Of a stretch of 64,000 nucleotides of DNA, positions 28,805 to 42,207 are shown in pieces. This stretch comes from an uncultured Gammaproteobacteria bacterium (GTDB lineage Bacteria; Patescibacteriota; Patescibacteriia; UBA9934; CAZDDW01). A program made the translations under genes and the position numbers. The notes below the pieces were generated by a model, which saw only the letters and a list, made by a program, of their open reading frames with translations, was not told the DNA's origin and searched no databases. Every line of letters begins with the position of its first letter. Position 1 is the stretch's first letter. The stretch spans positions 396,488-460,487 of the forward strand of contig OZ246408.1 of NCBI GenBank assembly GCA_965231015.1, read 5' to 3'.

Positions 28805-29470
28805 TTAGGCGGCGGTGTGGCGGCGCATCAGCTCGGTCAGCTGATGCGCCTCGATGGGTGCCACGCTGATCGGGCTCGAGAGCCGTGTGGCCTCGATCCC
28901 GTGGTCGCTGACCGTGACATCGAACTTCTGTTCGAGGTACAGCGTGTCCTCTGTTAGGCGTAGCACGGTCAGCCCTGGAACCGGGGCTGACAGATCAGCG
29001 CCGTCGAGCTGGATGGTGACCACTCCGTTTGGATTGGACCATCCGTAGGCGGCGTTAAAGGTGAGCGGATGCTTGTCCTCCAGCTCACCGAACAGGGTGG
29101 AAACCCCCTCGAACTCAGGGTCGTAGAGGTCGACCGGGTCACCCTCGGTGCGGAACACGAGCGTGATCGCGCCCTTGTTCTCAATGGTGATCCCATGGTT
29201 GTCCTCGCGCAGGGCACCGTAGGCGTGCACGAGGTTGAATCCGATCTTCTCGAGGTCTTCCTCAAGATCCGGGACGGCCACCTGCACCTGCGGAAGGTGC
29301 ATGATGGTTCGCCCGTCCGCGTCCTTGGGCTTGCGGATGCGGCGTTCGCCGCAGTGCGTCCGCACCCAGTTGAGTGCGGACGGGTGGGTTTCCTTTTCGA
29401 CCCAGACCTGCACCATGATGGCGCTAGCCTCGGTCATCTCACACGGATCTATGAACCGATGCGTCTGCAT
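28805..29470 (-). CDS. hypothetical protein in a GC-rich island
   Basis: 221-aa ORF; SD AGGAAGG. Confidence 0.5.
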   Translation of the reverse strand: MQTHRFIDPCEMTEASAIMVQVWVEKETHPSALNWVRTHCGERRIRKPKDADGRTIMHLPQVQVAVPDLEEDLEKIGFNLVHAYGALREDNHGITIENKGAITLVFRTEGDPVDLYDPEFEGVSTLFGELEDKHPLTFNAAYGWSNPNGVVTIQLDGADLSAPVPGLTVLRLTEDTLYLEQKFDVTVSDHGIEATRLSSPISVAPIEAHQLTELMRRHTAA

Positions 29471-29492
29471 TCGTTTTCCTTCCTGCGCGAAC

Positions 29493-29876
29493 TTAGGTGC
29501 GCTTGTGGTTTTCTTCGGGCATGATGATCCGAATCCCGTCGAACCAGAAGGTCACAGTGGCGTTGATGGGCTGGTGTGCCCACTCATCGCACAGCTGTCC
29601 TTCCGGTTTTTTGTCGTCCGGAACCCGAGCGATGGCGTAGATCTCGGTGATCCTGGCCACCACCTCGGTGCTGGCGGGCGGCACGTTCTCGGGCAGGGAA
29701 ACGAGCAGGTTCTCCTCGAGCCGGGCAAACGGCTGAAGGTATTTGGGTACCCGCCGCAAGAGCGCGATGGCGATCCTACCGTCCATGAGGCCGTGCAAGT
29801 ACGCACTGGCCTGGGGCGAGAAGCGGATTCCGCCCGGACCCGAGACAGTGACTCTTTTACTCACACGGTTCTTCAT
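29493..29876 (-). CDS. hypothetical protein in a GC-rich island
   Basis: 127-aa ORF; SD AGGGGG. Confidence 0.45.
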   Translation of the reverse strand: MKNRVSKRVTVSGPGGIRFSPQASAYLHGLMDGRIAIALLRRVPKYLQPFARLEENLLVSLPENVPPASTEVVARITEIYAIARVPDDKKPEGQLCDEWAHQPINATVTFWFDGIRIIMPEENHKRT

Positions 29877-30036
29877 GTTTACCCCCTGGTCAATGGAGAC
29901 AGGATTGAATCCAAGAGGCGTAGCTTAGCGAAAAAAACGACTTTTGTCAAGTCGTCTTTGTTCTTTTTAGGCTGAACTTAGCCAAAAAACAATAACGAGA
30001 GCATATTGTATGCTCTCGAAAAAGAGTAGAGTTGAC

Positions 30037-30396
30037 CTAAGGAAGGCCGTATCGGCCGTTGCCCAGGTGTTTGAGTTCGATCGGGCCAGCCTCATCGGAG
30101 GGGTCCGAATAAAACTCGGGATTGTGGGTTGGTTGATCGGGGTCGTCGGCTCGAGCCGCAAATGACCAGTAGGGAATCATGATCCTCTGGTTTGGTCCCG
30201 GATGATCCTGGATCACGAAACTGACGGCCAGTTGGATGATTTCCGGATCACGGTCAAAACTACGCCGGAAGTTACGGATGACCTTCTTGACCGCCCGCTC
30301 GGCTTCCGGACAATCGAGAAGCCCGGTCAGCCGCGTGGTCACGCCGTTCGTGATGCTGTTCGCTCCGCGGGCCAGAACAGTTTTCTCGATCTTCAT
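30037..30396 (-). CDS. hypothetical protein in a GC-rich island
   Basis: start at MKIEKT after AAAGGGG. Confidence 0.45.
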   Translation of the reverse strand: MKIEKTVLARGANSITNGVTTRLTGLLDCPEAERAVKKVIRNFRRSFDRDPEIIQLAVSFVIQDHPGPNQRIMIPYWSFAARADDPDQPTHNPEFYSDPSDEAGPIELKHLGNGRYGLP

Positions 30397-30473
30397 CAGA
30401 AATACCCCTTTCAATCACCTTTTTACATGATAACATATCATCTACAAAGGAAATCGCCTGAGTACTCACGCAC

Positions 30474-30845
30474 TCAGGCAGGGTTGTCGCAAATGGATTC
30501 GCGACCCTCGAAGGATTCCTCGAAGGCCGGATTCAGGCGAGTTACGCTCATGGGGAGGCGGGTGTTGTGCGCTTGGTTGGCTTCGGGCCATTGGTAGTTG
30601 ATCCGGTTGGCCTGGGCTTCATTGATTCGATCGTTCGCTTGGTAGTAAACGAACGATCCAGCACCGAAGGCCATCACGGCCAAGATCAGGAACCATGAGC
30701 TCCCGAACGTGCCAACGGCGAACAGAACTACCCCGATCAGGATCATGATCGCCCCGAGGCACCACTGGCCATAGGCCGTGATTACCCGCGAGAACCACAT
30801 GTTCGCCTTGTTGATTCTGGGCTGGTAAATCTTCTCCATCTGCAT
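30474..30845 (-). CDS. hypothetical 2-TM membrane protein in a GC-rich island
   Basis: SD AGGAGG immediately upstream. Confidence 0.5.
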   Translation of the reverse strand: MQMEKIYQPRINKANMWFSRVITAYGQWCLGAIMILIGVVLFAVGTFGSSWFLILAVMAFGAGSFVYYQANDRINEAQANRINYQWPEANQAHNTRLPMSVTRLNPAFEESFEGRESICDNPA

Positions 30846-30966
30846 CCTCCTGGTTCAGCAAGTAAAGGTTCTACTTCCGCTATCCTCCGCTACGGATCTC
30901 TTTCTTATCACAAAATCAGCAAAATGTCAACTGTTTGATAATAGTTGAACAAAATTGGGTTAGGAA

Positions 30967-31004
30967 TAGGGGGGTACGGTGTTTGTTCGTAGGTACGAAA
31001 AAGT
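30967..31004 (+). repeat. 38-bp direct repeat, copy 1 (TAGGGGGGTACGGTGTTTGTTCGTAGGTACGAAAAAGT)
   Basis: Identical to 31543-31580; contains an internal GGTACG...GGTACG direct repeat and TACG-N9-CGTA. Confidence 0.8.
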
Positions 31005-31020
31005 GGTATATTGATAAAGT

Positions 31021-31545
31021 ATGAAAAAAGAATCTAAACAAATTAATAACTATACTCAAAATGTCTTTGTGACATTGGTGGACATGTGGGACGTGTTGAG
31101 TACCTCGAGACAATACAGAAGCCTAGAGGATCGAAATATTGCTCATGATTATGCAAGACACAAAGATTATTTTGATAAACAAAAAAGGAATCGGGCGATT
31201 GCAAATTTAAAAAAGAAAAAGTGGATCGAATCTCGCAAAAAAGGAGAATCGATCGAATACAAGTTGACAGAGGAGGGGTTGAAAGCTGCAATAAAACTCG
31301 ATGCCTACTACACAACCAAGCTTTTAAAAGATGGTAAAAAATGTTTTGTATTTTTTGATTTTCCTGTGGCTGCAAATAAAGCTCGTGATGAGTTTCGGTA
31401 CACATTAAAACAATGTGGCTTTAAATTGTGTCAGCAGAGTATCTGGGTTTCGAATAAAAACATAGGTCCACAAATCGCATACTTAGCAAAAGCACTTGAT
31501 GCCTCCGAATGGGTTCGTGTTGTAGTAGGGAAAGAAATTGATTAG
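31021..31545 (+). CDS. winged-helix DNA-binding protein with uncharacterized C-terminal domain (weak Cas2/VapD-like pattern)
   Basis: KKWIESRKKGESIEYKLTEEGL resembles a PadR/MarR-type wing; the C-terminal VFFDFP...FRYTLKQCGFKLCQQSIWV pattern is a low-confidence call. Confidence 0.5.
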   Translation: MKKESKQINNYTQNVFVTLVDMWDVLSTSRQYRSLEDRNIAHDYARHKDYFDKQKRNRAIANLKKKKWIESRKKGESIEYKLTEEGLKAAIKLDAYYTTKLLKDGKKCFVFFDFPVAANKARDEFRYTLKQCGFKLCQQSIWVSNKNIGPQIAYLAKALDASEWVRVVVGKEID

Positions 31546-31580
31546 GGGGGTACGGTGTTTGTTCGTAGGTACGAAAAAGT
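31543..31580 (+). repeat. 38-bp direct repeat, copy 2 (overlaps the stop codon of 31021-31545, sits upstream of rarA)
   Basis: perfect match to copy 1. Confidence 0.8.
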
Positions 31581-31637
31581 TGTCATCTGATCTTGCGTTG
31601 ACTAGGTTCAGTACATTCTGTACCTTGTACCTACACT

Positions 31638-32915
31638 ATGAACGATCTCTTTTCCTCCCAAAATGAACAAAACCAGAAAAAGAACGCACCGCTCGCTGAA
31701 CGGATGCGGCCGTTTGATTTGGACGGGTTTGTGGGTCAGGTGCAGCTCGTGGGATCTAATGCCATGCTGCGAAAGCTACTCGAGGCTGACCGGGTACCGA
31801 GCATGGTTTTTTGGGGGCCTCCAGGAACCGGAAAAACCACGTTAGCCAGAATCGTGGCTCGTTTAACCAAATCAAACTTTGTCCAACTCTCAGCTGTGGC
31901 TTCAGGTCTCAAAGAAGTTCGTGAAGTCATCAAAGAGGCAGAGGAACAACAAAAGTTTTTCAACAAACGAACCATTCTTTTTATTGATGAGATTCACAGG
32001 TTTAACAAATTACAACAGGACGCGTTTTTACCGCACGTAGAATCAGGAACCATCACTTTGATCGGAGCAACCACGGAAAATCCAAGCTTTGAGGTTAATT
32101 CAGCTTTGCTTTCTCGCTGTCGAGTCATGCTTCTTGAAAAGCTTTCAACCTCAGATATTCTCGAACTTATAAAACGGGCTTTAAAAGACGAACAAACAGG
32201 ACTGGGACGGTTCAAAATCAAGGCGGATGACGCTACGCTGGAAGTGCTGGCCGCTATGGCTGACGGGGATGCTCGAGTGGCTTTGAATGCTCTTGAGTAC
32301 GCTGTGGATTCTTCGCTCTCGGAATCTAACACTGATATGGTAGAATTGTCCCGAGAGAAGATTAAAGAGGCTTTTTTAAAGTCACACCTTTTATATGACC
32401 GCGCCGGTGAGGAGCACTATAATATAATAAGCGCGCTCCATAAATCCATGCGCGGCTCTGACATTGATGCATCGCTTTACTGGCTTGGCCGAATGCTCGA
32501 GGCCGGGGAAGACCCGCTTTACGTGGCTCGGCGGTTGATCCGATTTGCGTCAGAAGATATTGGTTTGGCTGACCCAGAAGCCTTGAACCAGGCAACAGCC
32601 GCTTACACCGCAGCACATTACCTTGGTATGCCTGAGTGTAACGTGGTGCTCGCTCAAGCAGTGGCGTACTCAGCAAAATCCCCAAAATCCAATGCTTTGT
32701 ACCGGGCGTACAACAAAGTGCAGGTCACCATATCTCAGCGTCCGGCCGACCCGGTGCCACTTCATCTACGCAATGCACCAACCAAGCTTATGAAAGACAT
32801 TGGTTGCAGTAAGGGGTACAAATATAATCCAAATTACGAAGGTCCGGTGGAGCAAGATTATTTGCCAGAAGGACTTAAAAATAAAAAGTTTTATGAATCT
32901 GAAGGAAATAAATAA
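31638..32915 (+). CDS. rarA: replication-associated recombination protein A (AAA+ ATPase)
   Basis: GPPGTGKTT Walker A; full-length MgsA/RarA architecture. Confidence 0.85.
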   Translation: MNDLFSSQNEQNQKKNAPLAERMRPFDLDGFVGQVQLVGSNAMLRKLLEADRVPSMVFWGPPGTGKTTLARIVARLTKSNFVQLSAVASGLKEVREVIKEAEEQQKFFNKRTILFIDEIHRFNKLQQDAFLPHVESGTITLIGATTENPSFEVNSALLSRCRVMLLEKLSTSDILELIKRALKDEQTGLGRFKIKADDATLEVLAAMADGDARVALNALEYAVDSSLSESNTDMVELSREKIKEAFLKSHLLYDRAGEEHYNIISALHKSMRGSDIDASLYWLGRMLEAGEDPLYVARRLIRFASEDIGLADPEALNQATAAYTAAHYLGMPECNVVLAQAVAYSAKSPKSNALYRAYNKVQVTISQRPADPVPLHLRNAPTKLMKDIGCSKGYKYNPNYEGPVEQDYLPEGLKNKKFYESEGNK

Positions 32916-40947: not shown

Positions 40948-41140
40948 AGTAAAAATATATGAGTTAATCTGCAAAACGTGGCTTAGGCTGCAGAAACTCG
41001 ACTTATTTCTACTTAACTTAAGGCAAACTTTTTGCACCGCAATTATAACATGAATAAGTTCGTATGTCAATGGGGTGGGTTTTACTAAAGATTCTAAACT
41101 AAAAGTAACACTTATTTGATAGTAGTAATAATAAAGTAAT

Positions 41141-42081
41141 AAAGGGGTCAAGTCTTGTAAAGGGGTCAAGTCTTGTTAACGACTTTTTTATTATACTTCC
41201 CTCTACTAATCCTTCCAATAACTGATGGGTCAAGTTTCACATATTTTGCAATTTCTGTGGCGGGATACCCACATCGAATACGTGCGAATTGAATCATTTT
41301 GTTTCTTTCTTCTTTTGTTGAAATACTATCAAACAACTCTTCGAGGCTTGGTCTACCCACAATCCTCTGTTCTCTTGGACAATCTTTAATCTGCCCCGAT
41401 CCCCTTGTCTGATTTTCCCGGATCCAATCAATGAATTGTGGACTACCAAGAAGAAATCCGTTCTTTACATCTTTATGAGGATCTCTTGAATTTATTCCGT
41501 CAATTACAAATTGTTCATACATCTTTTGGGCATCACCTTTCTTGTCTGCAAAACACCCCAGAATCGAATCAGAATATAGCCATTTTGGTGACTCAATATC
41601 TTTAACTGAAGATTGAAAACCGCTCCATTTCCAATGACCGGGGTGATTAACAAGGTTCGCCCTAACGGGATTTAATGATATGTATCGAGCCACTTCGAGA
41701 AGGTAGGTTTCTTTTTCTATCACAAATGATTTATACCGCCCTTGAAACAGGTGTCCCACGGTTTTGTGCTTTGCATTAAACCACTGTGTATAATTACCAT
41801 TTATGTCACGCATGGATTTAGACAGATTTGCGTCAGGTGTTTCCAGAAGCAAATGATAGTGGTTATCCATCAGACAATATGCGTGACAAATTATATTATG
41901 CATTTTTACTGCGTCACCAATCCAATCTAAAAACTTCAGACGGTCATCGTCATCATGGTAAATGTTTTGATAACCGTTACCGCGGGCGATTACGTGGTAA
42001 AGCGCGAAGGGATATTCTATTCTAAGCGGTCTTGCCATACAACATTATTATACCAGATAGTCGGTAGCAAGACCTGACCCC
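41141..42081 (-). mobile_element. IS200/IS605-family-like (RAYT-like) single-gene element bounded by 14-bp inverted repeats
   Basis: Left GGGGTCAAGTCTTG (tandem 18-bp copies at 41141-41158 and 41159-41176). Right CAAGACCTGACCCC at 42068-42081; its reverse complement GGGGTCAGGTCTTG matches at 13 of 14 positions. Confidence 0.5.
41166..42038 (-). CDS. HUH Y1 transposase (IS200-like / REP-associated tyrosine transposase family) with C-terminal DnaA-like HTH
   Basis: HYHLLLE HUH motif, catalytic RYI, C-terminal IRCGYPATEIAKYV HTH. Confidence 0.55.
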   Translation of the reverse strand: MARPLRIEYPFALYHVIARGNGYQNIYHDDDDRLKFLDWIGDAVKMHNIICHAYCLMDNHYHLLLETPDANLSKSMRDINGNYTQWFNAKHKTVGHLFQGRYKSFVIEKETYLLEVARYISLNPVRANLVNHPGHWKWSGFQSSVKDIESPKWLYSDSILGCFADKKGDAQKMYEQFVIDGINSRDPHKDVKNGFLLGSPQFIDWIRENQTRGSGQIKDCPREQRIVGRPSLEELFDSISTKEERNKMIQFARIRCGYPATEIAKYVKLDPSVIGRISRGKYNKKVVNKT

Positions 42082-42207
42082 ATTTCCCCATTTCCTTGAA
42101 TTGCAGGGTTGGGCTAATTTTCAGCAAGTATGTCTTACAATGACACAACACTTGACCCATTGCTCCTATCTTGATATAAATGCAAATAGTTTGCAATTAA
42201 TATTATT

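Follow-up and report, generated by a model that had tools for sequence, protein, structure and literature searches.

PaaX, studied in Escherichia coli and Pseudomonas (PDB 8a39, 3l09), is the repressor of phenylacetate catabolism, a protein of approximately 305-316 amino acids (aa) in which an N-terminal winged helix is followed by a central Cas2-like dimerisation domain and a C-terminal phenylacetyl-CoA effector domain. At its own promoter, Px, PaaX acts as a repressor through steric hindrance, and the E. coli protein recognises a long, widely spaced palindrome, TGATTC-N27-GAATCA (PMC9493321). Here we describe a locus on contig OZ246408.1 (GenBank assembly GCA_965231015.1), within a stretch of 64,000 nucleotides (nt) from a member of the Patescibacteriota that was analysed as a whole and that we refer to as the window. 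By its nearest named rarA homologues the organism belongs to the Patescibacteria and stands near Candidatus Uhrbacteria. In this locus a 174-aa relative of PaaX, which we call mini-PaaX, is encoded between two perfect copies of a 38-nt direct repeat, and the second copy lies just upstream of rarA (mgsA), the gene for an AAA+ ATPase. On comparative grounds the most likely role of the two 38-mers is to bind, as cognate sites, the protein whose gene they enclose. The reading we favour, and consider probable, is that the locus constitutes a self-contained module in which a mini-PaaX repressor has its own operator on either side, autoregulatory and horizontally exchanged as a unit. The finding is more general than this single locus, as the arrangement of site, gene and site is a family trait.

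The repeat, TAGGGGGGTACGGTGTTTGTTCGTAGGTACGAAAAAGT, has exactly two exact matches in the 64-kb window, both on the forward strand and both where the preliminary description had placed them (Table 1). No third copy is present in the window with up to 3 mismatches allowed, the number of copies expected by chance is zero (100 shuffles), and the genomes of GTDB species contain no exact match. The likeness between the two copies widens to 44 nt with 2 mismatches (30964-31007 versus 31540-31583). Copy 1 ends 16 nt before the ATG of the mini-PaaX gene (31021) and copy 2 opens with the TAG stop codon of the same gene (31543-31545), so the initial account of both positions was accurate; the 538 bp between the two 38-mers are occupied by the gene. 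Copy 2 does lie upstream of rarA, at a distance of 57 nt from its ATG (31638). The GGTACG direct repeats and the TACG-N9-CGTA dyad noted earlier are both found inside the 38-mer, although a stronger symmetry is the 20-nt imperfect palindrome TTgTTCGTA-GG-TACGAAaAA. The duplication is real and not an artefact of one assembly: two further assemblies of the strain (k=31, based on other sequencing runs) both stop exactly 30 nt into copy 2, and an exact repeat of at least 31 nt breaks a de Bruijn graph of this kind. A role of the repeat at the RNA level was considered and rejected, since the region has no match in Rfam, the repeat folds weakly (-7.7 kcal/mol, z = -2.1) and the 111-nt leader of rarA folds like its shuffled versions (z = -0.05).

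Table 1. Position of the mini-PaaX gene, its flanking repeats and adjacent elements in the window
Feature	Position	Strand	Remarks
Conserved 5' leader of the divergent gene (ATG at 30845)	30859-30907	-	Near-identical in L023 (947-1000)
TGTCAA (TTGACA on the - strand), -35 box of the divergent gene	30925-30930	-	Last clear homology to the empty site of L023
AT-rich 36-nt stretch between chromosomal flank and copy 1	30931-30966	+	No counterpart in L023
Repeat copy 1, proposed operator O1	30967-31004	+	38 nt exact; overlaps promoter of the 174-aa gene
20-nt imperfect palindrome in copy 1, proposed core site for the dimer	30983-31002	unstranded	TTgTTCGTA-GG-TACGAAaAA
Extended -10-like box, TGgTATATT	31004-31012	+	Read from the sequence; ends 8 nt before the ATG
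174-aa mini-PaaX gene	31021-31545	+	ArsR-like winged helix (~aa 36-97) and Cas2-like domain (aa 104-171)
Repeat copy 2, proposed operator O2	31543-31580	+	38 nt exact; opens with the TAG stop codon
20-nt imperfect palindrome in copy 2	31559-31578	unstranded	TTgTTCGTA-GG-TACGAAaAA
Candidate rarA promoter, TTGACT-N17-TACCTT	31598-31626	+	Inferred; weak -10, below scan threshold
rarA/mgsA, AAA+ ATPase, co-directional downstream neighbour	31638-32915	+	Pfam MgsA_C, 1e-60

The C-terminal domain of the encoded protein, regarded as uncharacterised in the preliminary description, turned out to be the Cas2-like PaaX_M domain (Pfam PF20803, aa 104-171, E = 5e-12, 46.2 bits against a gathering cut-off of 24). 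An AlphaFold2 model built from 47 family members has a mean pLDDT (predicted local distance difference test) of 85.9 and is confident from residue 40 on, with values above 90 in the winged-helix part (helix-helix-beta-hairpin, aa 36-97). When this model was compared with the PDB using Foldseek, the best match was E. coli PaaX 8a39 (119 aligned columns), followed by many Cas2 structures. The likening of the wing to PadR and MarR, made at first, is roughly right: in the family profile the N-terminal half of the protein matches winged helices of ArsR/SmtB/CzrA repressors in the PDB (E ~6e-4). The same profile also matches true Cas2 through the common motifs vFDxP...R..FR..L...GF...Q.SV; residues D113, P115, R122, R126 and S140 are invariant in the alignment of 47 sequences. 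The protein scores below the cut-offs for both PaaX (equivalog TIGR02277, 27.9 bits against 264.55, with only positions 39-142 of the 279-position profile covered) and Cas2 (16.2 against 24.5 bits), and it is therefore a two-domain mini-PaaX consisting of a winged helix and a Cas2-like dimerisation domain, without the effector-binding C-terminal domain of PaaX. Pfam and NCBIfam scans of the protein gave PaaX_M and winged-helix matches only and no catalytic domain of a known transposase or recombinase.

An exhaustive HMMER search shows that the family comprises 969 representatives at 50% identity, nearly all of them 160-200 aa long. A search of the genomes of GTDB species for the family gave no match, and a word-index search for homologues yielded few members. 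An origin of mini-PaaX in a defence system or a phage was rejected, as the PADLOC matches are only weak ones (an LmuC-like winged helix, and Cas2) and PHROGs has no match at all. In a literature survey of incomplete coverage we found no description of the two-domain family or of its bracket of sites, and nothing relevant that links PaaX with Cas2 or deals with regulators of Patescibacteria, also known as the Candidate Phyla Radiation (CPR).

Mini-PaaX would work like PaaX by fold and logic, but is not PaaX proper. The two proteins have in common the winged helix and the Cas2-like dimerisation domain, and PaaX represses its own promoter through a long palindrome to which the 30-40-nt palindromes of the mini-PaaX family (see below) are similar in geometry. 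The differences are that mini-PaaX lacks the effector domain and is much shorter, that paa genes are missing from its surroundings (rarA, a DUF4178 gene, the gene for a C26 peptidase and genes for hypothetical proteins), and that the mini-PaaX sites bracket the open reading frame (ORF) of the regulator itself.

The extended -10-like box of the mini-PaaX gene begins at the last base of copy 1. This copy probably lies upstream of the transcription start, a further point against a role in RNA. A consensus promoter scan has no entry at 31004-31012, as the scan requires a -35 box and there is none at this position. The mini-PaaX mRNA is presumably leaderless or nearly so; the absence of a Shine-Dalgarno sequence was dropped as an argument on this point, as only 9 of the 53 genes in the window have one. 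A mini-PaaX dimer sitting on copy 1 would occupy the -35 and spacer region and so would repress its own synthesis in the manner of PaaX at Px. Binding of the protein to the sites, autorepression and the role of copy 2 are what we infer from the sequences compared below.

To see how general the arrangement is, we scored nine independent homologue loci, counting the window as one locus and L014 and L015 together as another; a metagenome scan for the family contributed four loci that represent two distinct lineages. As pair score we took the highest-scoring alignment without gaps, in either orientation, of the surroundings of the start (-130 to +6) with those of the stop (-30 to +130), and the null distribution was obtained from 200 shuffles per locus, the maxima of which did not exceed 13.5 across loci. 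A lineage-specific 20-40-nt site is present 0-26 nt before the ATG in seven of the nine loci. Its 3' partner lies within a few nucleotides of the stop codon in six of these seven and 54 nt beyond it in the seventh, L028; at most loci the 3' site is found at -9 to +5 nt relative to the stop. The window has the highest score (39, the 38/44-nt direct repeat). In L020 (score 29) and L027 (24.5) the pair flanks the gene in direct and inverted orientation, respectively. In L019 (26) the site AACATAAACTTCT-CATATG-AGAAGTTTATGTT overlaps the ATG and is found again 4 nt past the stop, in L028 (25) a perfect palindrome of 30-40 nt ends at the ATG, in L001 (21) the site TGTACATTATTTTCC-CATATG-AGAAAATAATGTACA lies 1 nt before the ATG and its partner overlaps the stop, and in L014/L015 (17.5) a palindrome with a CGATCG centre is positioned before the ATG and directly after the stop. 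Of the two remaining loci, L013 has a weak inverted pair flanking the gene with a borderline score of 11.5, and L026 has no pair (score 8).

For comparison, 100 control genes from the same DNA had a mean pair score of 8.4, and two of them reached 15. One is a NUDIX gene that shares the sites of L001; with this gene set aside the count is 1/99, the single remaining case being the IS200-like Y1 transposase gene of the window. For 7/9 family loci against 1/99 control genes, Fisher p is ~1e-8. The fetched homologue loci hold no further copies of their sites, apart from a third copy of the palindrome at L001 (5426-5461, P0039 lineage), which is located 26 nt upstream of the NUDIX gene that precedes the mini-PaaX gene. 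The NUDIX gene bracketed by mini-PaaX sites could signify a two-gene regulon or a two-cassette array. In a strain comparison at this locus the contigs were identical.

Most of the family sites are palindromes, mostly of 30-40 nt (GTAGAATTACGTCGATCGACGTAATTCTAC is one example), and no sequence is common to the sites of different lineages, except for the CATATG centre within one subfamily. Site arms that are both palindromic and lineage-specific fit a dimeric protein that co-evolves with its own site, and an upstream site this close to the ATG (0-26 nt) has to overlap the core promoter. The paired copies have diverged by 2-8 mismatches, with the palindromic cores kept. The 20-nt palindrome of the window locus is identical in all four copies found in the window and in L011, a contig of its sister lineage, and all three differences in L011 fall outside the palindrome. 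We read the sites as operators because they are long palindromes, specific to their lineage, located on the promoter of their own gene and kept in pairs that have diverged.

This retention of the pairs bears directly on the idea that copy 1 alone is a working operator or promoter element and copy 2 a functionless scar left by homologous recombination or gene conversion. An identity of 38 nt that is exact and extends over the non-palindromic G-run would point to recent copying rather than to selection, and both the break in identity to L011 at copy 2 and the variability of the DsbD-to-rarA interval among relatives are in agreement with such an event. However, the 3' partner is kept in seven of nine lineages, with intact palindromic cores in diverged pairs, while a scar would be expected to degrade and not to turn up repeatedly at stop codons in unrelated surroundings. 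We therefore find the scar explanation very doubtful.

The orientation of the pairs is mixed: the window and L020 have direct pairs, L027 and L013 inverted ones, and in perfect palindromes the two cannot be told apart. Operators bound by a symmetric dimer may point either way, so that mixed orientation agrees with them and speaks against target-site or attachment-site (att) duplication, or directional recombination, as the general origin of the pairs. For the window itself, a duplication resulting from integration of a circular or linear cassette into a pre-existing 38-bp site upstream of rarA, by a site-specific recombinase or through staggered cuts, could account for perfect, direct repeats around a gene of foreign composition; moreover, several relatives display a 13-6-13 geometry with a CATATG centre, which recalls the core sites of tyrosine recombinases. 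Yet the nearest relative without the cassette, L023, has no copy of the site, no integrase, Cas1, recombinase or transposase is encoded within ~8 kb of the mini-PaaX gene, some lineages carry inverted pairs, and the arms of the sites change along with the encoded protein, not with any conserved recombinase of the host. Such an origin is most improbable.

Cas2 is a dimer that lies along duplex DNA. The C-terminal domain of mini-PaaX resembles Cas2 and the related VapD in having the Cas2 fold and its signature motifs, with the Asp of beta-1 within 'FDxP', Arg residues and 'QxSV'; unlike these proteins, it is fused to a winged helix, scores below the Cas2 cut-off and is accompanied neither by cas1 nor by a CRISPR array. 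There are only two repeats in the 64 kb, against the 3 or more at regular spacing that make an array, the 538-bp 'spacer' between them is a gene, and no cas gene was found among the scanned neighbours; the locus is thus no CRISPR array, as had been recognised from the outset. An integron cassette was likewise rejected. Integron attC sites are 57-141 nt long with an R''-L''/L'-R' layout, a GTTRRRY core and a nearby intI integrase, whereas the repeat described here has 38 nt, barely folds, contains no GTTRRRY core and has no integrase among its neighbours.

In anatomy the locus is reminiscent of insertion sequences and of transposases associated with repetitive extragenic palindromes (REP; the transposases are called RAYTs). 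Each consists of one small ORF with cognate repeats, specific to the lineage, close on either side; the left repeat contains the promoter, the stop codon falls at the right one, and there are signs of horizontal movement. In contrast to these elements, mini-PaaX has no DDE, HUH, Ser or Tyr catalytic domain, is present in a single copy without dispersed repeats in the 64 kb, and shows no target duplication in the comparison with L023. A REP/RAYT system in the strict sense is not indicated either: Pfam detects no Y1_Tnp domain in the 174-aa protein, and the window and the fetched loci lack additional site copies beyond the one at L001.

The window does carry a Y1 transposase gene of the IS200-like type (290 aa, 41166-42038 on the - strand, within the region 41140-42084; Pfam Y1_Tnp, 6e-13). 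It is flanked by 26-nt inverted repeats (~41159-41184 and 42059-42084), beside it there is an 18-nt tandem repeat, TAAAGGGGTCAAGTCTTG, in 2.1 copies (41140-41176), and together they may represent a RAYT/REP-like unit. This gene serves as a natural positive control for a gene bracketed by its own repeats.

Repressors such as LacI (operators O1 and O2), GalR and DeoR use auxiliary operators a few hundred base pairs apart, one at the promoter and one downstream. By analogy, the two identical sites of mini-PaaX, also separated by a few hundred base pairs, may act as such a pair; what sets mini-PaaX apart is that its distal site is consistently found where the ORF of the regulator ends. Copy 2 would offer mini-PaaX a second site, and it may pair with copy 1 through a loop of ~576 bp. 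Alternatively, it may gate or roadblock transcription that leaves the cassette, or that starts beside it, towards rarA. As a third possibility, copy 2 may be an upstream modulator of rarA.

No intrinsic terminator is predicted on the + strand between the mini-PaaX gene and rarA; on this basis we rejected copy 2 as a terminator, and read-through from one gene to the other is plausible. A PaaX_M gene is located directly upstream of rarA in four of the six cases examined, namely the window, L011 and two Uhrbacteria-like relatives, the rarA genes of which are only 72% identical. It is not found in this position in L023 (rarA 86% identical) and L024 (73%). The shared neighbourhood suggests a functional link between mini-PaaX and rarA. 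A separate observation concerns the sequence GTTAGTATCA, which probably represents a -10 region. It lies 9-13 nt ahead of the rarA start codon and is kept in L023 (1040-1069), L024 (5970-5986) and L026 (5985-6000). It is absent from the window (31598-31637) and from L011, where an unrelated GTAC-rich sequence, GTACATTCTGTACCTTGTACC, is found instead. The rarA promoter region is therefore remodelled in the lineages that carry the cassette, the window and L011.

How recently the unit has moved can be judged from its sister lineage, represented by L011 and L012, short metagenomic contigs from two runs that are mutually consistent. DNA identity between the window and L011 is 93-98% from copy 1 to copy 2, breaks at the 3' end of copy 2 and is 75-85% from ~31590 on. 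Nei-Gojobori estimates for the window against the sister lineage give a synonymous divergence (dS) of 0.139 and a non-synonymous divergence (dN) of 0.014 for the mini-PaaX gene, compared with dS 1.32 and dN 0.065 for rarA, and dS 2.15 and dN 0.091 for the DUF4178 gene. Relative to the sister lineage the segment of repeat, gene and repeat is thus ~10-fold younger than its flanks. It also differs from them in composition: the GC content of the mini-PaaX gene is 36% (0.34 at third codon positions, GC3) versus 45% for the window, and genes of the family are lower in GC than their flanks at almost every locus.

Synteny comparison of relatives, as proposed in the preliminary description, provides an empty site. 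L023 has rarA without the cassette and without any trace, even a single copy, of the 38-mer; it keeps the left-flank DNA corresponding to 30859-30930, which contains the leader and the -35 box of the divergent gene, and then continues into rarA after ~50 nt. In a manual alignment homology to L023 resumes at TTGTC, at the end of copy 2, which is suggestive, the automatic alignment being ambiguous at this point. The AT-rich stretch at 30931-30966 is either part of the inserted unit or a diverged spacer. It appears from these comparisons that the unit was gained, lost or replaced recently, and that it was exchanged much later than the surrounding chromosome diverged. The initial suggestion of an att-like site duplicated by a small cassette is thereby divided: the att part is not supported, given the missing 38-mer in L023 and the mixed orientation of the pairs, and the movable cassette is retained on the strength of dS, GC content and presence or absence among relatives. 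A recombination hotspot, also proposed at the outset, is possible and would agree with the break in identity to the sister lineage at the 3' end of copy 2.

L011 and L012, both Logan contigs, begin at the same base within copy 1 (GGTACGG...), and copy 2 of their lineage differs within its first 30 nt. This implies that the samples contain another sequence with that 30-mer, from a co-occurring strain or a further copy.

With a young and apparently movable unit, it has to be asked whether the repeats could be the functional ends of a small mobile element, bound and possibly cleaved by the winged-helix/Cas2-like protein in the way of an insertion sequence or a homing gene, so that the sites would serve movement above all, with autoregulation as a by-product. 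Transposase binding at the left inverted repeat of an insertion sequence is a model for autoregulation of this type, and compact insertion sequences, which the locus would resemble in its anatomy, reportedly (Mahillon and Chandler 1998) have their promoter inside the left end and their stop codon within the right end or at it. Such an element would fit a unit much younger than the DNA on either side of it, rich in AT and not shared by all close relatives, as well as the coincidence of the identity break with the outer edge of copy 2 and the occurrence of GC-poor family genes upstream of unrelated genes. Both the conserved Asp of true Cas2 and its FDxP...QxSV motifs survive in the Cas2-like domain, and the sole other control gene with flanking repeats encodes a Y1 transposase.

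On the other hand, the 174-aa protein has no known transposase or recombinase catalytic domain, and Cas2 nuclease activity is dispensable even in CRISPR adaptation. There is one copy of the unit per locus, with no mini-PaaX paralogue in the 64-kb window or in any fetched locus, and no target-site duplication is seen, ~36 nt of extra non-homologous DNA being present outside copy 1 in comparison with L023. The family has no match in plasmid and phage collections (tblastn) or in IMG/VR scans. Finally, the position of the gene upstream of rarA is constant in four relatives, some of them with very divergent alleles, which looks like vertical persistence with allele replacement. Taken together, we consider ends of a mobile element unlikely. 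A bolder version of the idea, in which mini-PaaX and its flanking palindromes are an unrecognised class of minimal selfish cassette in Patescibacteria, a cousin of the CRISPR Cas2 module whose Cas2-like dimer would nick, cleave or bridge its sites and whose ~600-bp unit would further its own transfer or home into intergenic regions ahead of housekeeping genes, is quite unlikely.

Several considerations weigh against the operator module that we favour. The link between protein and site is purely comparative. The placement of the 3' site at the stop codon in most loci is unexplained by ordinary local regulation, exact identity over 38 nt exceeds the needs of an operator, the site in the window has weaker palindromic symmetry than the sites of other lineages, and L026, although of the same family, lacks a pair. 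The dS contrast depends on the short contigs L011 and L012, and a cross-strain chimera joined at the repeat is possible, although such a chimera would itself need a copy of the repeat beside the rarA of the other organism. Simple occlusion of the rarA promoter by copy 2 is unlikely, because copy 2 ends 17 nt before the -35 box of the candidate promoter without overlapping it (the counterpart of this promoter in L011 is TTGACC-N17-TACCTT), and the hexamer that follows copy 2 at the -10-equivalent position is TCATCT, which is not a -10 box. Of the preliminary proposal of one operator shared by the gene and rarA, the operator of the gene itself is the part best supported, by the pairs in seven of nine loci and the PaaX-like fold; control of rarA is a possibility. 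Moreover, the genes downstream of mini-PaaX vary by lineage (rarA, an epimerase/dehydratase gene, secA and a gene for a small membrane protein), so the 3' site is better seen as part of the regulator's module than as evolved for each target. The convergent neighbour of L014 was dropped as evidence against a downstream target, since the gap holds a plausible co-directional ORF of 51 aa with a ribosome-binding site.

Upstream of the module the window contains four consecutive genes on the - strand (28805-30845) that encode hypothetical proteins of 221, 127, 125 and 123 aa, without a match in Pfam, NCBIfam, PADLOC or PHROG. Their GC3 is 0.67-0.81 against ~0.45 in the rest of the window, and their homologues in L023 are likewise GC-rich. 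In L024 the variable interval between DsbD and rarA holds a single gene. A 25-nt motif, TAkCACAAAATCAGCnnnnTGTCAA, recurs in the window at 85-109, 29926-29950 and 30906-30930. On the opposite strand it reads TTGACA plus spacer. It looks like a promoter architecture that genes on the - strand have in common, and comparable motifs are found ahead of such genes in L023, L024 and L026.

Transcription control in Patescibacteria is almost unstudied, and mini-PaaX gives a concrete, testable assignment of a protein to its site. In each lineage examined the predicted operator can be read from the two ends of the gene, and with 969 representatives the family is widespread. A truncated PaaX without the effector domain exists as a stand-alone module. 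Should mini-PaaX be only a local repressor with two operators, the result would be a useful but ordinary annotation. If the unit does travel as a cassette, it would be an unusually small self-regulating mobile unit and possibly a view of a Cas2-like DNA-binding dimer outside CRISPR; and if the Cas2-like domain acts on the flanking sites, interest in the module would rise sharply.

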